From assembly GCA_003858585.1 (NCBI GenBank), contig RQZE01000008.1, forward strand, positions 45,544 through 77,543: a stretch of 32,000 bases of DNA, read 5' to 3'. This stretch comes from Erysipelotrichaceae bacterium OH741_COT-311. GTDB taxonomy: Bacteria; Bacillota_I; Bacilli_A; Erysipelotrichales; Erysipelotrichaceae. The notes beneath the pieces are model-generated. The model worked only from the letters and a program-made list of their open reading frames with translations. It was not told the origin of the DNA and searched no databases. Position numbers and translations under genes: made by a program. Positions 19,322 through 30,590 of the stretch are shown in pieces (positions within the stretch are counted from its first letter, which is position 1; each line of letters opens with the position of its first letter).

Positions 19322-19374
19322 AGTTGGTAGAGTTTTAAAAGTTTATTATCAATGTAACAATTATTAATATAATG

Positions 19375-19644: not shown

Positions 19645-21228
19645 ATGGATAACAATCAAATTAAAACAAATGAAAGTATTCAACGTTCAGAATTACATCG
19701 AAAAATATGGGCAATTGCAGATAATGTACGTGGAACTGTAGATGGATGGGATTTTAAACAATACATACTAGGTATTTTATTCTATCGTTTTATTTCTGAA
19801 AATATGAAAGAATATTTTAATAAGGCAGAACATGAAGCAGGAGATTTGAAGTTTGATTATGCACGTATTTCTGATGAAGAAGCAGAACAATACTTCAAAC
19901 CCAATACAGTAGAAGATAAGGGTTATTTCATTCTTCCAAGTCAATTATTTGAAAACGTTGTAGAAAAAGCGAGAGTGAATTCAAATTTAAATGTTGAATT
20001 AGATACAATTTTTAAAAATATTGAATCAAGTGCAGTTGGTTTTGCATCTGAAGATGATATTAAAGGATTATTTGAAGATATTGATGTGCGTAGCAGTCGT
20101 TTAGGAAACACAGTTGAAGAAAAAAATAAGCGTTTAGCTGATATTTTAATTGGTATTTCAGAAATAAATTTTGGTCGCTTTGAAGAAAATCAAATTGATG
20201 CTTTCGGGGATGCGTATGAATATTTAATTTCTAACTATGCAAGTAATGCAGGAAAATCGGGTGGAGAGTACTTTACTCCACAAACCGTTTCTAAATTATT
20301 AGCTAGATTAGTTATGGAAGGAAAGAAAAAAATTAATAAAGTATATGATCCAACATGTGGCAGTGGTTCTTTACTTTTACAAATGAAAAAACAATTCGAA
20401 GAACATATTATCGAAGATGGTTTTTTTGGTCAAGAAAGTAATATGACAAACTATAACTTATCAAGAATGAATATGTTTTTACATAATATAAACTATAATA
20501 AGTTTTCAATTAAACATGGTGATACCTTATTAAAACCAATGCATAATGATGAAAAACCATTTGATGCAATTGTATCAAATCCTCCTTATTCAATTAAATG
20601 GGTAGGAGATGGAGATCCTACATTAATTAATGATGTACGTTTTGCTCCAGCTGGAAAACTTGCACCAAAAAAAAAAGCAGATTATGCATTTATTATGCAT
20701 TCCTTAAATTATTTATCTAGTCAAGGACGAGCAGCAATTGTTTGTTTCCCCGGAATCTTTTATCGAAAGAGTGCTGAAAAAACTATAAGACAATATCTAG
20801 TGGATAATAACTTTATTGATTGTGTTATTCAGTTACCAGAAAACTTATTCTTTGGAACTTCCATTGCAACTTGTGTTTTAGTTATGTCAAAAAATAAAAC
20901 TGAAAATAAAATATTATTTATTGATGCAAGTAAAGAATTTAAAAAAGAAACAAACAATTATATTTTAGAAGAAAAAAATATTGAAGTAATCGTAGAGGGA
21001 TTTAAAAACAGATCAGATAAACAATATTTTTCAAGATATGTAGATAAAAGTGAAATAGAAGAAAACGATTATAATTTATCTGTTTCAACATATGTAGAAA
21101 AAGAAGATACAAGAGAAGTTATTGATATTAAAGCTTTAAATAAAGAAATCGAAGAAACTGTAAGAAAAATTAATGAATTAAGAGATTCTATTAATGAAAT
21201 AGTAAAGGAGTTAGAAACAGATGCTTAA
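19645..21228 (+). CDS. hsdM: Type I restriction-modification system, DNA methyltransferase subunit
   Basis: 527 aa with an HsdM N-terminal domain, SAM motif [13 protein letters not shown] and catalytic motif [10 protein letters not shown]. hsdS and hsdR follow. Confidence 0.96.
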
Positions 21229-21294: not shown

Positions 21295-23235
21295 ATGAAA
21301 AAAATAGATAATTTATTACAAAATGAACATGTTGAATGGAAGAAATTAGGAGAAGTATGTGAGATTTTGAATGGGTATTCTTTTAAAAGTGAAAGCTATT
21401 CCTTTAGTGGAATACGTGTAATTAGAATTTCTGATGTTCAAAATGGATTTATTTCCAATAAAGAACTCAAGTATTATTCGTCAAATAATATCAAAGAAAT
21501 AGAAAGGTATTTATTATATGAAGATGATTTAGTAATTTCTTTAACTGGTAATGTAGGTCGCGTAGCACTAATTGATAAGTCTATTTTGCCTGCGGCTCTT
21601 AACCAAAGGGTTGCTTGTATTCGTTGTCCTAATCAAATAACATCAAAATATTTATTTCATTTTCTCAATCAAAATTTATTTGAAAAGATGGCAATTCAAA
21701 ATTCAAGTGGAGGAGGTCAAAAAAATTTAAGTACAATTTGGTTGAATAATTACGAAATCCCAATTCCTTCGTTAAAAACTCAAGAAAAAATAGTAAAAAC
21801 ACTTGACAAATTTACAAATTGTGTTACTGAACTACAGGCTGAACTACAGGCAAGAAATAAACAATATAATTACTATAGAGATAAATTACTAAGTGAAGAA
21901 TATCTAGGCAAAATCTCAAAGAAAATAGATAAGTTGGAAAATAAAAAGTATCAATTAAGAAGTACAACTCTTGGTGACGTAGGAGAATTCACAAGAGGGA
22001 ATGGATTACAAAAAAGTGATTTTACTTATAAAGGAAAACCAGCAATTCATTACGGTCAAATATATACCAAGTATGGATTTTCCACAGATAAAACAATTTC
22101 ATATGTAAGTGATGCGACTTATTCTAAATTAAGAAAAGCAAAAACAAATGATATTTTGATAGCTACAACCTCTGAAAACATAGAGGATGTTGGTAAAAGT
22201 ACAGTTTGGCTTGGAAAGGAAGAAATAGGATTTTCAGGAGATATGTATAGCTATAGCACAAATGAAAATTCTAAGTATATTGCTTATTATTTTCAAACTG
22301 AAGAATTTCATAAACAAAAAGCTAGAAAAATATCTGGAACAAAATTAATTCGTATTCACGGAGATGATATGAAAAAATTTTGCATAACTCTTCCATCACT
22401 AGAAATTCAAGAAAAAATTGTGGAAATTTTAGATAAATTTCAATCTATGCTTTCCGATACTCAAGGACTGTTGCCAAAAGAAATTGAGCAAAGAAAAAAA
22501 CAATATGAATATTATCGTGAAAAACTATTGACATTCAATACGATATGTGATAGCAAGCAAGCAAGCAAGATAATACCTACTAATTATTTTACTATATTAA
22601 AAGAAGCAGCAAATATTGTAGATGTAGAACTATATGCAGTTAAATGGAAAAGCCTTGGTGAAATAGGGAAATTTGAAAATGGAACAGGTATGCCAAAAAC
22701 AATGTTTAGTATGTCTGAAACTATTGGTGCAATACATTATGGTCATATTTATACAAAATACAACATGTTTGTTTACAATCCGATTGTTAATGTGAGCACA
22801 GAAAATGCAAAGAAATTAAAAAAAGTAAATCAAGGAGATTTAGTTATTGCTAAAACTTCTGAAAATGTAGAAGATATTATGAAAACAGTGGCATATTTAG
22901 GTGAAGGTCAGGTGGTAACCGGAGGACATGCTGCAATATTTAGCCATCAAGAAAATCCAAAATATTTGTCTTATGTGTTTAATGGTGCAAGTTATCTTAT
23001 AAGTCAAAAAAATAAATTAGCAAAAGGAGTTAAAGTGATAGAATTATCTATCTCTGATATGGAAAAAATAAAAATTCCATTACCTTCTCTTCCTGTTCAA
23101 GAATACATTGTTTCTATTTTGGATAAGTTTGACATGCTTGTAAATGATATTTCTCAAGGGCTTCCAAAAGAAATTGAATTAAGAAAAAAACAATATGAAT
23201 ATTATAGAGAAAAACTATTTAGCTTTAATAAATGA
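21295..23235 (+). CDS. hsdS: Type I R-M specificity subunit with three target-recognition domains (TRD1-CR1-TRD2-CR2-linker-TRD3-CR3)
   Basis: 646 aa, against roughly 400-450 for a typical HsdS. There are three TRD-like blocks (aa ~12-157, ~222-366, ~449-596). Each is followed by a conserved helix: PSLKTQEKIV...ARNKQYNYYRDKLL, PSLEIQEKIV...QRKKQYEYYREKLL and PSLPVQEYIV...LRKKQYEYYREKLF. Confidence 0.9.
   Translation: MKKIDNLLQNEHVEWKKLGEVCEILNGYSFKSESYSFSGIRVIRISDVQNGFISNKELKYYSSNNIKEIERYLLYEDDLVISLTGNVGRVALIDKSILPAALNQRVACIRCPNQITSKYLFHFLNQNLFEKMAIQNSSGGGQKNLSTIWLNNYEIPIPSLKTQEKIVKTLDKFTNCVTELQAELQARNKQYNYYRDKLLSEEYLGKISKKIDKLENKKYQLRSTTLGDVGEFTRGNGLQKSDFTYKGKPAIHYGQIYTKYGFSTDKTISYVSDATYSKLRKAKTNDILIATTSENIEDVGKSTVWLGKEEIGFSGDMYSYSTNENSKYIAYYFQTEEFHKQKARKISGTKLIRIHGDDMKKFCITLPSLEIQEKIVEILDKFQSMLSDTQGLLPKEIEQRKKQYEYYREKLLTFNTICDSKQASKIIPTNYFTILKEAANIVDVELYAVKWKSLGEIGKFENGTGMPKTMFSMSETIGAIHYGHIYTKYNMFVYNPIVNVSTENAKKLKKVNQGDLVIAKTSENVEDIMKTVAYLGEGQVVTGGHAAIFSHQENPKYLSYVFNGASYLISQKNKLAKGVKVIELSISDMEKIKIPLPSLPVQEYIVSILDKFDMLVNDISQGLPKEIELRKKQYEYYREKLFSFNK
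21829..21852 (+). repeat. 12-bp tandem duplication in the hsdS central conserved region
   Basis: gaactacaggct (21829-21840) followed by gaactacaggca (21841-21852), encoding ELQA-ELQA within ...VTELQAELQARNKQY... Confidence 0.9.
22474..22529 (+). repeat. Direct repeat copy 1 (hsdS CR2)
   Basis: ccaaaagaaattga...agaaaaaaacaatatgaatattat...aaaaactatt. Blocks of 14, 24 and 10 nt are identical to 23164-23219, exactly 690 bp (230 codons) downstream. Confidence 0.9.
22552..22569 (+). repeat. Tetranucleotide microsatellite (GCAA)4.5 inside hsdS
   Basis: agcaagcaagcaagcaag, encoding SKQASK. It lies 13 nt after the end of conserved region 2. Confidence 0.95.
23164..23219 (+). repeat. Direct repeat copy 2 (hsdS CR3)
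   Basis: See copy 1. The two copies are in frame with each other. Confidence 0.9.
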
Positions 23236-23251: not shown

Positions 23252-26200
23252 GTGGAAGAGGTTAAAAGTCTGTATTGTACATCTTCAATTGCTGAGATGA
23301 CAAATGGGATTATTTTAGCTAATTATGAAAAAGTTTTAAGTGTACAAGAGTCGTATCAAACAGAAGCACAGTTGGAGAGTTATTTAATTGATAATTTAGA
23401 ATCACAAGGCTATGAAAGGTTTGTAGCACATACTAGTGAAGATTTATATAATAACTTAAAGATTCAAATGGAGCGTTTAAATAAAGTAACATTTACTTCT
23501 TCAGAGTGGAATCGCTTTTTAAATGAATTTTTGGATTGTCCAAATGATGGAATGATTGAAAAGACACGAAAAATTCAAGAAAATCACTTGTATGATTTTA
23601 TTTTTGATGATGGTAGCCTTGTTAATCTTAAAATCATAGATAAGCTAAATATACACAATAACTTCTTACAGGTTACAAATCAAATTGTACAATTTGGTAA
23701 ACATAAAAATCGTTATGATGTAACGATATTAATTAATGGATTACCTTTGGTTCATATTGAATTAAAGAGTCGTGGTGTAAGATTGCGTGAAGCATTTGAT
23801 CAAATACATCGATATAGCAAAGAGAGTTTTAATGCAAACCATTCTTTATACAAATATGTACAAATTTTTGTCATATCTAATGGTACGCATACACGTTATT
23901 TTGCAAATACAACTGCTCAAAATAAAAATAATTATGAGTTTACATGTGAATGGGCAGATGCAAAAAACAAAGCCATTAAAGATTTAGAAGATTTTACTAA
24001 AACATTTTTTGAAAAACGTGTATTACTAGAGGTATTAACAAAATATTGTGTATTTGATGTTAAGGATACATTATTAATATTACGACCTTATCAAATTGCA
24101 GCAACTGAGCGTATTTTATGGAAAATTAAATCAAGTTATGAAAGTAAAAGATCGGGAAAAGTAGAAGCTGGGGGATATATTTGGCATACAACAGGTTCTG
24201 GGAAGACATTAACTTCTTTTAAAACTGCCCGCTTAGCAACATCTCTATCGATTATCGATAAAGTATTTTTTGTAGTTGATCGTAAAGACTTGGACTATCA
24301 AACTATGAAAGAATATCAAAGATATCAAAAAGATAGTGTAAATGGTAGTAAAGATACAAAAGCGCTAAAAAAAGTTATAGAGCTAAATGATAATAAAATT
24401 ATTGTGACTACAATTCAAAAGTTAAATGAATTTGTAAAGAGAAATCAAAATCATGAAATATATCAAAAACATTGTGTTTTAATTTTTGATGAATGTCACC
24501 GTTCTCAATTTGGAGAAGCACAAAAAAATATAAAAAAAGCGTTTAAAAAATATTATCAGTTTGGTTTTACAGGAACGCCAATTTTTCCAGAAAATGCGAT
24601 TGGAACAGATACAACATCAAGTATTTTTGGTGCACAGCTACATAGTTATGTTATTACTGATGCGATTCGTGATGGTAAGGTTTTGAAGTTCAAAGTAGAT
24701 TATCATAATGTAAATGCTAAGTTTAAATCCGAAGAAAAAGAAACAGATTTAATGAAATTAAAGAGCTATGAAAAAAAGGTTTTAGCTTTACCAGAAAGAA
24801 TTTCAAGTATTACAAAACATATTTTAAAGGTATTTGATGATAAAACACGTCGTAATGAGTATTATGATTTGAAAAAGCGTCGATTAAATGGGTTTAATGC
24901 AATGTTTGCGGTTTCTAGTATAGAAGCAGCTAAATTATATTATGAAGAGTTTCAAAGACAACAAAAAGAACTTCCAGAAGAAAAAAGGCTTAAGGTAGCT
25001 ACAATTTATAGCTTTTCTGCAAATGAAGAGCAAAATGCAATAGGAGATATTGTAGAAGAAACATTTGAGCCTACTGCACTTGATTCTTCTTCAAAAGAAT
25101 TTTTAAGTAAAGTGATTAAAGATTATAATGGATACTTTAAAACAAATTATTCTCTTGATGGAAATGAATTTCAAAACTACTACAAAGATTTATCGGCAAG
25201 AGTTGCGAATCGTGAAGTTGATCTTTTAATTGTGGTTGGAATGTTTCTGACAGGATTTAATGCAGAAACGTTAAATACGTTGTTTGTAGATAAGAATTTA
25301 AGATATCATGGTCTAATACAAGCCTTTTCAAGAACTAATCGTATTTTAAATAAAGTGAAAACTTTTGGTAATATTGTATGTTTTCGTGATTTAGAAAAAG
25401 CAACTCAAGAAGCAATTAAAGTGTTTGGTGATGAAAATAGTGTAAATATTATTTTAGAGAAAAGTTATACAGAATATATTAATGGATTTGAAGATCAAGA
25501 AAGTGGAAGTGCATTTAAAGGTTATGAAAAAATATGTAAAGAAATCCTTGCCAAATTTCCTGATCCAACAGAAATTATTTTAGATGAAGACAAAAAAGAG
25601 TTTGTAAAATTGTTTGGTGAGCTTTTGAAAGCAGAGAATATTCTTAAGAATTTTGATGAATTTGAAAGTTATGATAATGGTATTTCTGAACGTCAAATGC
25701 AAGATATGAAGAGTGTTTATGTAGATATTCGAGAAGAAATATTAAATCAAAAACAACAAGAGAAAAACGAAAATGCAGGCATTGATTTTTCTGACATCGA
25801 GTTTCAAATAGATTTATTAAAAACAGATGAAATAAATTTAGATTATATTTTAGCTTTAATTTATGAAAAATCAAAAGAGCATAAAGATATTGAAGTATTG
25901 AAGTATGAAATTAGTCGCATCATACGTTCAAGTTTAGAAACGAGAGCAAAAGAAAAGCTTGTTATGGACTTTATTAATCATACTCGCATTTCAGAGCTTA
26001 AAACAAGCAAAGATATTATTAAATCATTCTATGAGTTTGCGAATAGAGAAAAGAAAAAAGAAGTCGAAAGATTAATTCAAGAAGAACATTTAAAAGAAGA
26101 AGCGGTTCGTTTTATTGAAAAGTCAATTGAAAAAGGATGGGTAGAAAATGCAGGCATTGAGCTGGATAGTGTTTTACCTCCTGTATCAAGAAGACAAGGT

Positions 26201-26272
26201 GCACGTGAAGCGAAAAAGCAACAAGTACTAGATAAAATTCGTAAGTTGGTAGAAGTATTTGTGGGGGTATAA
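23252..26272 (+). CDS. hsdR: Type I R-M restriction endonuclease/translocase subunit
   Basis: 1006 aa with a GTG start at 23252 and RBS aaggaggg. N-terminal PD-(D/E)xK motif (YDVTILINGLPLVHIELK) and SF2 motifs HTTGSGKT and FDECHRSQ. Confidence 0.95.
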   Translation: MEEVKSLYCTSSIAEMTNGIILANYEKVLSVQESYQTEAQLESYLIDNLESQGYERFVAHTSEDLYNNLKIQMERLNKVTFTSSEWNRFLNEFLDCPNDGMIEKTRKIQENHLYDFIFDDGSLVNLKIIDKLNIHNNFLQVTNQIVQFGKHKNRYDVTILINGLPLVHIELKSRGVRLREAFDQIHRYSKESFNANHSLYKYVQIFVISNGTHTRYFANTTAQNKNNYEFTCEWADAKNKAIKDLEDFTKTFFEKRVLLEVLTKYCVFDVKDTLLILRPYQIAATERILWKIKSSYESKRSGKVEAGGYIWHTTGSGKTLTSFKTARLATSLSIIDKVFFVVDRKDLDYQTMKEYQRYQKDSVNGSKDTKALKKVIELNDNKIIVTTIQKLNEFVKRNQNHEIYQKHCVLIFDECHRSQFGEAQKNIKKAFKKYYQFGFTGTPIFPENAIGTDTTSSIFGAQLHSYVITDAIRDGKVLKFKVDYHNVNAKFKSEEKETDLMKLKSYEKKVLALPERISSITKHILKVFDDKTRRNEYYDLKKRRLNGFNAMFAVSSIEAAKLYYEEFQRQQKELPEEKRLKVATIYSFSANEEQNAIGDIVEETFEPTALDSSSKEFLSKVIKDYNGYFKTNYSLDGNEFQNYYKDLSARVANREVDLLIVVGMFLTGFNAETLNTLFVDKNLRYHGLIQAFSRTNRILNKVKTFGNIVCFRDLEKATQEAIKVFGDENSVNIILEKSYTEYINGFEDQESGSAFKGYEKICKEILAKFPDPTEIILDEDKKEFVKLFGELLKAENILKNFDEFESYDNGISERQMQDMKSVYVDIREEILNQKQQEKNENAGIDFSDIEFQIDLLKTDEINLDYILALIYEKSKEHKDIEVLKYEISRIIRSSLETRAKEKLVMDFINHTRISELKTSKDIIKSFYEFANREKKKEVERLIQEEHLKEEAVRFIEKSIEKGWVENAGIELDSVLPPVSRRQGAREAKKQQVLDKIRKLVEVFVGV

Positions 26273-26290
26273 AAATTAGTATATATTTAG

Positions 26291-27592
26291 ATGAGGGGAG
26301 ATAATAATACTGTGAAAAAGCATATATTGTTGAAGTATCTAGATGAATACTTTGAAGTTAACATAACTTTAGATTCAAAGTATACTATTGGAGATAATAT
26401 TAATAAAATTTGCACACTTTCAGAATATCAAGAAATAGTTCAAAATAATTTGATTTTTTGGGAAAAAAACTTTAAAAATGAAACAATTAGTTATTTTTCG
26501 TTTTGGGAAGAAAAACAAAAAAAATTAAATCAAATATATGGTATGATGCAACAAATAAAAAAAGAAGAATTTATATCTAAATTAAATGAAATTTGTGATT
26601 TTCTTAGTGTTGGACGGTTTAACGATAGTGGAATAGAAAATAAAATAAAAAAACAAATAAATATCAAAATAGAATCTCTTTTGATTGGGTGCTGTCAATT
26701 TGAAAGGTGTATACATTTTATAAAATTAATATATGATAATGATGATAAAAGTCTAAGAACTGAACAAATTTTACACAATTATATATATTTAATAAAGAAT
26801 CCTTATATGATAGGGTCATATTTTTCATCAAACTACAAAGAACAAAGTTTTCCAGCTTATGTGTTGTTATCAGAAAATATAAAATCGGAAAATAAAAATT
26901 GGACTTTGATTTCAAAAAATATTGAAGAAGATTTGGCTCATGAAAAAGAAAATTTGGAGAAAAGTTTTCAAGAAAAGTATAGCGATGCAATTCAAGAAAT
27001 ACACGATATAGAAAAAGAAATAAGAGAATTTTCAGAAAAATATCATGAGGAAAAAAATAAGAGACTGAAAGAATTAGAAGAACAAAATCAAAAATTAGTA
27101 AATAATTTATCAGTTTTAGAGACAACATATAAAGAAAAACTAAAATTAGAAGCTCCAGAACAACTATGGATTGAAAAAGCTAAACAGCAGAAAAAATCAG
27201 TAGTAATTTGGCTTTTAATTACTATCTGTACCGCTATTTTGTTGATTTACTCATTGGGTTGGCTCATTCCAACAATCTATGAATCTAATTTGAAAGAGAA
27301 TATAATTTTAAATAAAAGTTTTTTCTTGATTGCAATTATAACATTTTTTGTCTATATCATTAGGATAGAAGTTAAAGTTTTGCTTTCTTCAAGGCACCTT
27401 CAGTTAGTATATGAAGAAAAAGCTGCATTAACTAGATTTTATCAAGCATTAATATATGCTGGAAATCATATAGATGAAAATCAACTACTTTTAATTTATA
27501 GTATGTTATTTAAGGATACGGATACTGGGTTGGTGAAATCAAGTGATGGCACAGATATTGAAAGTATTGTTTCCACAATAATTCGAAAATAA
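26291..27592 (+). CDS. Uncharacterised coiled-coil / two-TM protein appended to the hsd operon
   Basis: 433-aa ORF 18 nt after the hsdR stop with no intervening hairpin. N-terminal ~200 aa have no motif I recognise; aa ~208-300 form a K/E-rich coiled coil. TM helices are SVVIWLLITICTAILLIYSLGWLIP and FFLIAIITFFVYIIRIEVKVLL, followed by a ~65-aa tail. The start is ambiguous: ATG 26291 lacks an SD, and the in-frame GTG 26312 follows gagggga. Confidence 0.75.
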   Translation: MRGDNNTVKKHILLKYLDEYFEVNITLDSKYTIGDNINKICTLSEYQEIVQNNLIFWEKNFKNETISYFSFWEEKQKKLNQIYGMMQQIKKEEFISKLNEICDFLSVGRFNDSGIENKIKKQINIKIESLLIGCCQFERCIHFIKLIYDNDDKSLRTEQILHNYIYLIKNPYMIGSYFSSNYKEQSFPAYVLLSENIKSENKNWTLISKNIEEDLAHEKENLEKSFQEKYSDAIQEIHDIEKEIREFSEKYHEEKNKRLKELEEQNQKLVNNLSVLETTYKEKLKLEAPEQLWIEKAKQQKKSVVIWLLITICTAILLIYSLGWLIPTIYESNLKENIILNKSFFLIAIITFFVYIIRIEVKVLLSSRHLQLVYEEKAALTRFYQALIYAGNHIDENQLLLIYSMLFKDTDTGLVKSSDGTDIESIVSTIIRK

Positions 27593-27638
27593 AATAGTTT
27601 ATAATCGTTGAATAATTACTTACAATTCTTAAATATAA

Positions 27639-27668
27639 AAAGAAGTTTAGCTTTAACTAAACTTCTTT
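27639..27668. terminator. Bidirectional terminator shared by the 433-aa ORF and the NERD gene
   Basis: 12-bp stem aaagaagtttag / ctaaacttcttt with loop ctttaa. It overlaps the last codons and stop of the NERD gene. Confidence 0.65.
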
Positions 27669-28252
27669 CTGTTTTCATAAGGTAACAGCTCATCTACAAC
27701 ACCTTTTAGTAAAGGGTGATAGTCGTATATGAATTTTTCTATTTGATTAAATTTAATGACATTCCTTATATCTGTTTTCAGCCTTGTTCGATTGGCAAAA
27801 ACAACCACCGAAACCAATGAGTCATGATCAACACCTGTAAAGGCTGAAATAGTCTTTGTATGTGCATAGTTTTGACGTAGTGGATTTTGAAAGCGATACT
27901 TTTGTTTACCAAGATAATGTGTCCATTGACTACTAAACGATGTGCCATACACACTTCCTGCATAGTTTTTAATTTCTGCAACAAACGTACTTCCGTTAAA
28001 TTCAAACACACAATCTATTTCAATTTCTTTTTCATCATTTTCCAACACTACATTCATTACAATATCTTCAACCCCCATAGCAACTAATTGATTATAAAAA
28101 TGAATTTCGGCACGTTTTCCTTTGTTTAAAAAGTAGATATAAAATGGTGTTTGATATCTAATATAATAAGGAGTTTTATGATAATTTAATCTCTGAAACC
28201 AAAAAAATGCAAAAACAAATAAAATAATGAGTAACATAATAATCCCCTTCAC
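27653..28252 (-). CDS. Membrane-anchored NERD-domain (nuclease-related, PD-(D/E)xK-like) protein
   Basis: 199 aa with an N-terminal TM helix (IIMLLIILFVFAFFWF). NERD-like core GKRAE...EIDCVFEFNGSTFVAEIKNYAGSVYG...W...QNPLRQNYAH. Starts at GTG 28252 (RBS gagga) or ATG 28237. Confidence 0.8.
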   Translation of the reverse strand: MKGIIMLLIILFVFAFFWFQRLNYHKTPYYIRYQTPFYIYFLNKGKRAEIHFYNQLVAMGVEDIVMNVVLENDEKEIEIDCVFEFNGSTFVAEIKNYAGSVYGTSFSSQWTHYLGKQKYRFQNPLRQNYAHTKTISAFTGVDHDSLVSVVVFANRTRLKTDIRNVIKFNQIEKFIYDYHPLLKGVVDELLPYENRKKFS

Positions 28253-28334: not shown

Positions 28335-29249
28335 ATGAAAACACTCTTAATTGGAAATGGATTAAATCGTTGTCTAAATACAAACATAGACTGGGGAAAC
28401 CTTTTAAACAGCATGAAAGAACACTATCATCTAAAAGATAAAATACATCCTGACATCAGTTTTCCTATGCAGTTTGAATGCATTGCCAATCATGTAAGTA
28501 AGCAAAAACACCACAAAAACGTATATACTCTTCTTAAAGAAGAAATCGCATCTAAGGTAAAGGAAATCAAAGCCATAGATGATAAGGAAATGGTACCACA
28601 TAGTTACTTTTTAAAAGACAAACGATATAAACGCATTCTAACAACCAACTACGACTATGTAATAGAAGACTACTTAAAACATACCTACAACCTTGCTGAT
28701 GAAGACCTTACATCCAATCAAAAAGAAATTAAGTATAGTTTAAGACGTTATCGTAAACTTCAAGATACTTACATCTTTCATATTCATGGAGAAGCCGATA
28801 AACCTGAAACCTTATGTTTGGGCTATGAACATTATGCAGGCACTATTCAATATCTACGTGGTAAACTTGCGTTGAAGGAAACATCACCACTATTGCATGT
28901 TTTAAAAAATAAACAAGTTACTCCAGACATCATTGAAACTTATTCTTGGGCAATTTTATTCTTGATTGATGATATTGAGATTATAGGATTAGGACTGGAT
29001 GAATCCGAGATTGATTTATGGTGGCTGATTAGTTATCGTGCTTATTTAAAGAATATGCATCCAGAAGCTTCTAGGTATATTCATAACACCATTACTTATC
29101 ATGAAATAATTAGTGAACATAGTGATTTACAATATATTAAAAAACGTAAAAGTCTGTTTGACAGTATGGACATTCAATACACAATGCATGAAGTAAAACA
29201 TTCTAATTATCTAGAAGGCTACTACGACATTGCAAAGACAATCGAATAA
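28335..29249 (+). CDS. AbiH-like / SIR2_2-like (DHS-like NAD-binding fold) protein
   Basis: 304 aa with an N-terminal Gly loop LLIGNGLNR, then ILTTNYD (N105), IFHIHGE (H151) and IIGLGLDESEIDLWW. This is the ordered motif set shared by the AbiH and SIR2_2 families. It has no SLOG, TIR or other extra domain. Confidence 0.7.
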   Translation: MKTLLIGNGLNRCLNTNIDWGNLLNSMKEHYHLKDKIHPDISFPMQFECIANHVSKQKHHKNVYTLLKEEIASKVKEIKAIDDKEMVPHSYFLKDKRYKRILTTNYDYVIEDYLKHTYNLADEDLTSNQKEIKYSLRRYRKLQDTYIFHIHGEADKPETLCLGYEHYAGTIQYLRGKLALKETSPLLHVLKNKQVTPDIIETYSWAILFLIDDIEIIGLGLDESEIDLWWLISYRAYLKNMHPEASRYIHNTITYHEIISEHSDLQYIKKRKSLFDSMDIQYTMHEVKHSNYLEGYYDIAKTIE

Positions 29250-29315
29250 GGTAGTATATATTAAAATTAGATGCTAGAAATATGATACAGTATAGTAAAA
29301 CATTAGGGGGTTATC

Positions 29316-30590
29316 ATGCAAAAACTAAAGGTTTTCTTTCTTAAAAATATTACATGGATTTATACACTGGAATACATTGCGTTTTCGATTGTTTTATTGT
29401 TTGTAGTTTCCTTGATTGATTTGCGAATTTTACCAATCAAAGACTTTCTTCCGGATATTATTAAACTTCGTGTGGATTTTTCACAAGGAATTTTAACATC
29501 TTTAGCAGCAGCCTTTTTAACAATCACAACCTTTACCTTTTCAACCATTTTAACGGTATTAAATACCTATGCTTCCAGTTTTACACCAAGAGTAGTAGAA
29601 AACTTTATTAATCGAAAGATTACTTTAAAAGTAGTTGGTATCTTCATTGGTGGATTCTTTTATTGCATAGGATCCTTAATCTTTACACGAGAAGTGTTGC
29701 ATAATGAAGCGGTAATTTCAGGCTTTGTAGCGATTATTTATTCGATTATTTGTATTATTTATTTCATTATTTTTGTACAAGAAGTCATCACGAAGTTTCA
29801 AGGCGTGAATGTCATTTTAGATGTTGCGGATATGGCACAGAAAGTCATTGATGAAGAAGTAGCGATTCGTAAACAAAGCCAAGCCATTCAACGTAAGGAG
29901 CATTATGTAACCCATCAAATTCAAGCCAAACAATCCGGTTATTTTAGCTTAGTTGATTTGGATGCGATTTTAAGCATGATGAAAGATCAGGAAGGCTACT
30001 TAAGCATAGATTGTAAGATTGGACAATACGTTGCCAAGGGAATGGACATCGCAACAGTGTCATTAAAAGATGTTTTTGAAGAAGAACTGGAAGAAAAGAT
30101 TTTAGATACTTTTGTGTTTCAAGATCAAAAACTGGCAGCCACAGATTATCGTTATAACATTACTAAGTTACTGGAGATTGCTTTGCGTGCGATTTCTCCG
30201 GGTATCAACGACCCAAATACCGCAATTCACTGTATTAATAAATTAGGGGTTTTATTATCACCGATGGCAAGCATCGATACCTATCACATCCAAAAGGCAG
30301 AAAATAGACAATTTCGTATTTACTATAGTTCTTATGGCTTTCAAGATGATTTAGAAACCTTTTATTTACCATTAATGCAATATGGCAAAGAAGATTTACA
30401 AGTTGTAGTAGCAATCTTACAAAGTTTAACGTTATTGTATCAAAATGCAACACAAATCAATCAAAGACATATTCAAACTGTGATACAACATGTAGAAGAA
30501 AAAGTCAAACCATGTTTTACCACTTCTTTAGAGACTTCGATTCTATCACAACATCTGCAAGGTTTCAAAGATACTAGCCAAGAAGGATAA
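29316..30590 (+). CDS. DUF2254-family membrane protein
   Basis: 424 aa with four N-terminal TM helices containing ...YASSFTPRVVENF.... The soluble C-terminal domain carries the family-typical ALRAISPGINDPNTAIHCINKLG. Confidence 0.75.
   Translation: MQKLKVFFLKNITWIYTLEYIAFSIVLLFVVSLIDLRILPIKDFLPDIIKLRVDFSQGILTSLAAAFLTITTFTFSTILTVLNTYASSFTPRVVENFINRKITLKVVGIFIGGFFYCIGSLIFTREVLHNEAVISGFVAIIYSIICIIYFIIFVQEVITKFQGVNVILDVADMAQKVIDEEVAIRKQSQAIQRKEHYVTHQIQAKQSGYFSLVDLDAILSMMKDQEGYLSIDCKIGQYVAKGMDIATVSLKDVFEEELEEKILDTFVFQDQKLAATDYRYNITKLLEIALRAISPGINDPNTAIHCINKLGVLLSPMASIDTYHIQKAENRQFRIYYSSYGFQDDLETFYLPLMQYGKEDLQVVVAILQSLTLLYQNATQINQRHIQTVIQHVEEKVKPCFTTSLETSILSQHLQGFKDTSQEG

Follow-up and report, generated by a model that had tools for sequence, protein, structure and literature searches.

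What is a gene for a predicted membrane protein doing directly behind the restriction gene of a type I restriction-modification (R-M) system, and does its product depend on the enzyme encoded upstream? The question is raised by an open reading frame (ORF) at 26291–27592 (+) in a stretch of 32,000 nt from Erysipelotrichaceae bacterium OH741_COT-311 (contig RQZE01000008.1 of GenBank assembly GCA_003858585.1, positions 45,544–77,543 of the forward strand), which is referred to as a whole as the window. The ORF is real, encodes 433 amino acids (aa) from an ATG codon and follows hsdM, hsdS and hsdR on the same strand. Profile matches place its product in the DUF6161/AbiZ family as a divergent member. 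The explanation that we favour, and hold to be probable, is that it is a single-protein abortive infection (Abi) effector of the AbiZ family, recruited as the last gene of a type IC-like hsdM–hsdS–hsdR operon and acting independently of Hsd.

Membership of the DUF6161/AbiZ family

The protein matches the Pfam family DUF6161 (PF19658) with 126.7 bits against a gathering cutoff of 27 (E = 1.2e-36), residues 216–417 corresponding to model positions 15–212 of 216, and the PADLOC model for AbiZ (PDLC02354) with 113.5 bits (E = 3.5e-33), residues 159–424 corresponding to model positions 129–388 of 398; residue numbers throughout are counted from the ATG unless GTG numbering is indicated. The AbiZ model was calibrated with a lactococcal reference, a DUF6161 protein encoded on plasmid pUCCL629C together with abiA and an R-M gene of the LlaJI family in an arrangement like that of pTR2030, which scores 552 bits end to end, and with other members of the oral clade, which align to the model almost end to end and score 112–156 bits. 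Compared directly, the window protein and the lactococcal protein are 30% identical over 243 alignment columns (about 213 window residues; E = 5e-25) and have in common the KLKL-AP..W motif, both transmembrane (TM) helices, the stripe of conserved residues on TM2 and the QKAALT..Y tail. The signature motifs of AbiZ are present (KLxLEAPExLW before TM1, the Y/R/K/S/H stripe of TM2 and QKAALTRFYQ after TM2), as are the two C-terminal TM helices (residues 303–330 and 344–366). A database search returned 310 relatives, the best of which, one identical copy aside, show 27–39% identity (mostly about 30%) at a length of about 429 aa; no family was matched in NCBIfam or PHROGs. The preliminary description of this DNA, made from the sequence alone, had called the gene an orphan, which the two profile matches and the number of relatives do not bear out, but it was right about the kind of protein in proposing an Abi-type effector with membrane helices, the founder AbiZ being a two-TM Abi protein that raises permeability. 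That founder is from Lactococcus lactis pTR2030 (Durmaz and Klaenhammer, 2007). In a 2025 preprint (10.1101/2025.01.08.631966) a DUF6161 family is listed as one for which no homology to established defence proteins could be detected. Scored against the AbiZ profile of PADLOC, DUF6161 proteins give E values from 1e-33 to 1e-166, and the link between Pfam DUF6161 and AbiZ can be made explicit. What had been an orphan becomes an annotatable defence gene, part of a two-layer cassette of type I R-M and AbiZ-type Abi within a small defence island.

Throughout the family the N-terminal domain diverges faster than the C-terminal module. As a single phmmer query against 1.84 billion representatives the N-domain of the window protein found only itself, and the idea that it is a sensor domain shared with other proteins was rejected on this result. 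A hidden Markov model built from 53 homologue N-domains gave it 74 bits (E = 1e-21), while 2000 shuffled sequences scored no more than 9 bits, which points to a true but fast-evolving domain of the family. Faster divergence of the N-domain is what would be expected of a sensor joined to a conserved effector, and such a division of labour is presumed here. The family offers many natural AbiZ variants with divergent N-domains, which should be useful for finding the trigger of AbiZ.

Architecture and predicted topology

Hydropathy, charge analysis and an AlphaFold2 model computed from 54 sequences (mean pLDDT 77, pTM 0.44) confirm the layout that had been read from the sequence, namely a globular N-terminal domain, a heptad segment rich in Lys and Glu, a motif, two TM helices and a tail of about 65 aa. 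The N-terminal domain (26312–26896, +; model residues 1–192 in GTG numbering, pLDDT mostly 80–93) is modelled with an alpha/beta fold, is fast-evolving, is predicted to be cytoplasmic and is the presumed sensor. The Cys/His cluster noted in it earlier (C134-C135-x4-C140-x-H142) is present but lineage-specific: none of the 53 homologues has Cys or His at these positions, the columns holding, in order, Asp (52/53), variable residues, Ile (51/53) and again variable residues, and a conserved metal site at C134/C135/C140/H142 was rejected. There follows a single K/E-rich helix of about 80 residues (26900–27139, +; residues 204–283, modelled at 197–276 in GTG numbering), which is presumed from heptad and charge analysis to be a coiled-coil or oligomerisation stalk; residues 201–302 contain 38% Lys plus Glu and heptad-like windows. 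The family signature LETTYKEKLKLEAPEQLW (27116–27169, +; residues 276–293) is a predicted hinge and juxtamembrane motif in which L276, E277, Y280, K283, L284, A288 and P289 are invariant; its LEAPEQLW stretch lies within KLxLEAPExLW, the most conserved motif of the family, and the model has a low-confidence hinge at the A-P-E motif (276–279 in GTG numbering).

TM1 (27197–27280, +; residues 303–330) reaches a 19-residue Kyte–Doolittle mean of 2.62, is helical in the model and is immediately preceded by KAKQQKK, and TM2 (27320–27388, +; residues 344–366) is supported by hydropathy and the homologue alignment. The loop between them has 12 residues, and both segments are contained in two long modelled helices. 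Y355, R358, K362, S366 and H369 lie on one helical face at what would be the cytoplasmic end of TM2; this stripe is invariant or nearly so in the 53 homologues and is also found in lactococcal AbiZ. The homologue alignment also delimits a conserved tail of 67 aa, predicted to be cytoplasmic (27389–27589, +; Q/E-KAALTRFYQAL ... LF..DTGLVK), from whose consensus the window protein departs with E for Q at 376 and V for E at 373. Because both TM helices have basic residues next to them on the presumed cytoplasmic side (KAKQQKK before TM1, R/K/R after TM2), an N-in/C-in helical hairpin is the likely topology.

The translation contains no Walker A motif (GK[ST]), and no P-loop family was matched in Pfam or NCBIfam, so that the earlier argument that the protein is neither PrrC nor RloC was borne out. 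Searches of Pfam and NCBIfam and fold searches detected no DNA- or nucleotide-binding domain, and the best S-2TM-type fold match in BFVD (E = 2.2) was not significant. A phage holin, another membrane protein that was considered, was set aside, as the protein has 433 aa (holins have fewer than about 150), is encoded in a chromosomal R-M operon and has no PHROG match.

The hsdR junction and the transcription unit

The stop codon of hsdR ends at 26272 and the ATG lies at 26291, leaving the gap of 18 nt that the preliminary description had taken to be free of hairpins. This proved correct: no meaningful hairpin was found on folding 26255–26320 (minimum free energy −3.4 kcal/mol, z = +0.5 relative to shuffles), and a terminator scan found no terminator-like site at the junction. 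The ATG is not preceded by a Shine–Dalgarno sequence; a GTG at 26312 is preceded by the Shine–Dalgarno-like GAGGGGAG (26293–26300) and coincides with the N-termini of homologues. Judged from these features the start is ambiguous and may be the GTG, in which case the protein would have 426 aa and the junction (26273–26311, +) would be 39 nt long. Downstream, 47 nt after the stop codon, lies a terminator-like hairpin with a 12-bp stem followed by a T-run (27639–27668, +), which overlaps the 3' end of a convergent gene; the fold of the 91 nt from 27590 to 27680 has a minimum free energy of −14 kcal/mol (z = −2.7). Since the hsdR junction is without a hairpin and a hairpin terminator follows the abiZ-like gene, co-transcription with hsdMSR in a four-gene unit hsdM–hsdS–hsdR–abiZ-like is plausible. 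The best candidate for a promoter of such an operon (TTATCA-16-TATAAT, 19346–19373, +) lies upstream of hsdM and matches at 10/12 positions, which is weak evidence, as a promoter scan is uninformative at 26–30% GC (67 promoter-like sites in the whole region against 60.7 expected from shuffles).

Relatives recur behind unrelated R-M systems

The genomic context of relatives was scanned with one genome per species, giving 44 loci, and positions were counted in 40 species-representative loci; the closest locus is that of an Erysipelotrichaceae metagenome-assembled genome (MAG) at 98% identity. In 21/38 loci (55%) a recognisable R-M gene directly precedes the abiZ-like gene. The loci are not all independent, and the figure is an undercount, because the ORF caller dropped two NgoPII genes and because elsewhere the two genes are separated by one for Abi_C or by a 544-aa ORF that has no annotation. 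R-M genes occupy the position immediately downstream in 4/40 loci and account for only 6 of 290 genes (2%) at a distance of six or more; the linkage to R-M operons is real and recurs. In the oral Saccharibacteria, Streptococcus, Gemella, Fusobacterium and Erysipelotrichaceae the genes of the family are found by preference at the tail of R-M and BREX operons or embedded in them. A housekeeping or structural membrane protein that happens to lie behind hsdR would fit with the lack of an enzymatic domain and of a fold match and with the housekeeping neighbours of some homologues, but a patchy distribution, an R-M gene directly upstream in 55% of loci against 2% at a distance, embedding inside BREX and type I loci and the match to PADLOC AbiZ make this very improbable. 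A phage origin was likewise rejected, only one locus having been found in 2.9 million viral contigs and no PHROG having been matched.

The partners themselves are diverse. In the scan loci at least seven unrelated R-M systems are distributed over at least seven sequence clusters of AbiZ-like proteins, the upstream same-strand partners being of type I, EcoRI, NgoPII, BpuJI, MmeI-like and type III, and individual look-ups added DpnII and BREX (PglX). This makes at least nine unrelated methylation-based partners (two type I families, EcoRI, NgoPII, DpnII, BpuJI, MmeI-like, type III and BREX). In most cases the upstream gene either overlaps by up to 4 nt or ends no more than 26 nt away; in Saccharibacteria the abiZ-like gene is placed between hsdS and hsdR and shares 4 nt with hsdS, and Fusobacterium relatives are embedded in BREX after PglX. 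No R-M gene is adjacent in 14/39 loci, where the neighbours are housekeeping or mobile-element genes, and the distribution of the family is independent of hsd. Proteins behind EcoRI and behind NgoPII are 62% identical in the N-domain and 72% in the rest, and a copy that has no R-M neighbour is 69% (N-domain) and 86% (rest) identical to an NgoPII-linked copy. At one locus (L017, 44–2344) a 3' remnant of the NgoPII endonuclease gene (97% over 100 aa) directly adjoins a fragment of an IS110-family transposase; the abiZ-like gene downstream is intact and has 99% identity to copies that follow an undamaged NgoPII.

These observations bear on the mechanism that had been proposed for the window gene, in which, in the manner of PrrC, the protein is held latent in the HsdMSR complex and is freed as a membrane toxin when Ocr, ArdA or a Stp-like protein inhibits the enzyme. 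Guardians of R-M systems are a documented concept, the gene directly follows hsdR with no terminator between them, and the Saccharibacteria gene, overlapping hsdS, occupies the very slot of PrrC (hsdS–X–hsdR). Against such a guard, the EcoRI, NgoPII, DpnII, BpuJI, MmeI-like, type III and BREX genes that the family follows have no common subunit, the N-domains of the proteins behind EcoRI and NgoPII are 62% identical, more than a third of loci (14/39) have no adjacent R-M, the gene survives intact beside a truncated endonuclease and lactococcal AbiZ is reported to work alone. The trigger by anti-restriction proteins is thus not supported, and we regard a guard of this kind as quite improbable. 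The broader suggestion of an R-M-coupled Abi partner stands in part, the Abi family and the linkage to R-M being as proposed and the PrrC-like coupling to the Hsd complex not.

Coupling of a less specific sort, in which the protein needs an R-M or BREX partner and responds to DNA breaks or fragments, to depletion of S-adenosylmethionine or to failure of methylation without binding a particular enzyme, would account for the strictly asymmetric 3' placement across at least nine types of system, which goes beyond ordinary clustering in defence islands, and for 4-nt overlaps that resemble translational coupling. It is at odds with the standalone members in housekeeping contexts, with the lack of a detected DNA- or nucleotide-binding domain and with lactococcal AbiZ, whose gene lies kilobases from the nearest R-M gene (of the LlaJI family) and on the opposite strand and is reported to act alone, and we consider it unlikely. 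As some cassettes lie in mobile contexts (an ICE-like region with TrwB, insertion sequence (IS) elements, resolvases, plasmids), an addiction or stabilisation module was also considered, in which a membrane toxin-like gene would stabilise a mobile R-M cassette or exclude competing mobile elements; this is decidedly unlikely given that no small antitoxin-like gene is consistently adjacent and that the founder has a demonstrated anti-phage phenotype.

A proposed second line of defence

Autonomy of the AbiZ-like protein is favoured because near-identical family members follow different R-M systems or none and because the gene has remained intact beside an IS-truncated NgoPII, while the guard is disfavoured because the partners share no subunit, the gene survives loss of the endonuclease and the founder works alone. 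For the founder, a single cloned gene is reported to suffice for protection; lactococcal AbiZ is described as causing premature lysis, as speeding lysis in cells that express holin and lysin and as raising the permeability of holin-expressing cells, and it is thought to cooperate with holin. In the proposed mechanism, the window protein would insert into the membrane as an N-in/C-in helical hairpin with the N-domain, the 80-residue stalk helix and the C-terminal tail all in the cytoplasm. A late phage cue, proposed for lactococcal AbiZ to be the phage holin, would then cause the hairpins with their Y-R-K-S-H stripe to permeabilise the membrane, so that the cell would die or lyse before progeny mature. 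The protein would act independently of Hsd, with which it would be co-inherited and probably co-transcribed, and would serve as a second layer against phages that have evaded restriction, for example through acquired host methylation. The most economical reading is thus of an autonomous, methylation-blind second line that is selected to travel, and probably to be expressed, with a first-line methylation-based defence.

Several points weigh against this proposal. Identity to AbiZ over the C-terminal half is only about 30%; the N-domain is about 13% identical to that of AbiZ and the PADLOC alignment begins only at residue 159. Because the N-domains are so divergent, the trigger may differ from that of AbiZ, and for AbiZ itself cooperation with holin is described only as 'likely'. 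Fold searches yielded no mechanistic anchor. A weak promoter-like sequence (TTGGTA-16-TATAAA), read by eye at 26246–26273, could speak against co-transcription. Functional coupling, and not mere co-inheritance, could also lie behind the very tight and asymmetric placement, which is always on the 3' side of R-M genes. If so, the AbiZ-like protein might be a dedicated fail-safe wired to methylation-based immunity in general, responding for instance to a signal that arises once such systems are inhibited or overwhelmed. The strictly 3'-terminal or embedded and translationally coupled placement of the genes, seen with at least nine unrelated systems, would then be accounted for, and we give this idea a small but real chance. 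The autonomous effector remains our preferred explanation, and the recurrence of the tail position provides a concrete and testable case of whether an R-M/Abi pairing is simple synergy or signalling.

Comparison with known systems

The window protein is like AbiZ in size (about 430 aa), in its C-terminal module and in being carried alongside an R-M system, and unlike it in being encoded on the chromosome of an oral Erysipelotrichaceae host at the tail of a type I operon, AbiZ being plasmid-borne. Existing knowledge accounts for most of the finding; what is new relative to the founder is the context, at the end of a type IC-like operon on the chromosome. With PrrC of EcoprrI and with RloC it shares the position of a suicide-type accessory gene within a type I (IC) hsd locus or joined to one, the window gene following hsdR and its Saccharibacteria relatives taking the hsdS–X–hsdR slot of PrrC. 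Unlike these proteins it has neither a P-loop ATPase nor an anticodon nuclease domain, its C-terminus being a two-TM hairpin with a DUF6161 tail, and its family is not limited to type I loci. It is documented that loci for type I R-M and BREX can have defence genes nested in them, and the gene resembles TgvAB, BrxU and the 'guilt-by-embedding' candidates of Payne et al. (2024) in that an independent defence is encoded within a methylation-based system or directly behind it. Those earlier cases concern nucleases or restriction enzymes of type IV, whereas the window protein is predicted to be an Abi effector that acts on the membrane; the main text of the preprint by Payne et al. makes no mention of AbiZ. 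Permeabilisation of the membrane or premature lysis of the infected cell, as predicted here, is also the outcome for RexB, the CBASS/S-2TM effectors and Abi-alpha of Enterococcus, none of which has sequence or significant fold similarity to the window protein; Abi-alpha and AbiZ share no similarity either.

The hsd operon and its surroundings

The operon begins with hsdM (19645–21228, +), which encodes a type I methyltransferase subunit of 527 aa (Pfam N6_Mtase, E = 7.7e-116, and HsdM_N; PADLOC MTase_I). The specificity gene hsdS (21295–23235, +) has three matches to Pfam Methylase_S, corresponding to three stretches resembling target recognition domains (TRDs), and at 646 aa its product is unusually long (about 400 aa is typical). 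It contains internal direct repeats D1/D2, the pairs at 21764/22391 (74%) and 22474/23164 (87%), and looks like three units of TRD plus conserved region within a single reading frame; neither a recombinase nor a silent hsdS' copy was seen near it. The restriction subunit of 1006 aa is encoded by hsdR (23252–26272, +; Pfam HSDR_N, SWI2_SNF2, T1R_D3-like and EcoR124_C; PADLOC REase_I, 1239 bits), and its C-terminal domain is of the EcoR124 type (EcoR124_C, E = 6.8e-59), which makes the system type IC-like. The whole locus is reproduced in an identical 29-kb Logan contig.

The convergent gene behind the abiZ-like gene (27653–28252, −) encodes a NERD domain (Pfam, E = 3e-15) and belongs to the same defence-like island, which does not imply a functional link. 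It is only 68% identical to its counterpart in the closest MAG (L003, 787–1332), and because its neighbours are far more similar to that MAG (abiZ-like 97.5%, SIR2-like 94%, DUF2254 97%), gene replacement or diversifying selection at the NERD gene alone is suggested. Beyond it, 28335–30590 (+) holds a SIR2_2/ThsA-like gene followed by genes for a DUF2254 membrane protein and YccF. The first of these (28335–29249, +; 304 aa) matches Pfam SIR2_2 (E = 6.5e-8) and, weakly, PADLOC ThsA (E = 2.6e-7), and is again a neighbour in the island with no link implied. Together hsdMSR and the AbiZ-like, NERD and SIR2_2/DUF2254/YccF genes look like a small defence island that lies between the mfd/divIC region and a histidine-phosphatase gene.

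Variants among the relatives

Some of the loci differ from the window in ways that concern the abiZ-like gene or its immediate neighbours. At a type III locus (L041, 8113–9747) the 544-aa ORF that separates res from the abiZ-like gene has no match in Pfam, PADLOC or NCBIfam. Saccharibacteria hsd operons (L004, L008, L021, L022, L025 and L028) embed other genes besides the abiZ-like one, namely those for a KAP P-loop NTPase, RhuM, an IrrE/M78 peptidase and an AAA_21 plus RloB pair between hsdS and hsdR, and in another Saccharibacteria type I locus (L044, 9968–11254) the abiZ-like gene is split into ORFs of 204 and 218 aa, probably by a frameshift or as a pseudogene. The BREX-embedded relatives of the Fusobacterium type (L056–L059, P0077, 549 aa; L047, 7672–9305, P0089) carry an N-terminal extension of about 115 aa, the equivalent of which in F. 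animalis is a separate, overlapping ORF of 114 aa that precedes a protein of 434 aa. In a Veillonella-type clade (L048–L051; L060, 4855–6846) an unannotated gene for 204–205 aa on the same strand always precedes an abiZ-like gene for 422 aa, and this may be a two-gene variant; the single locus found on a viral contig carries the same pair.

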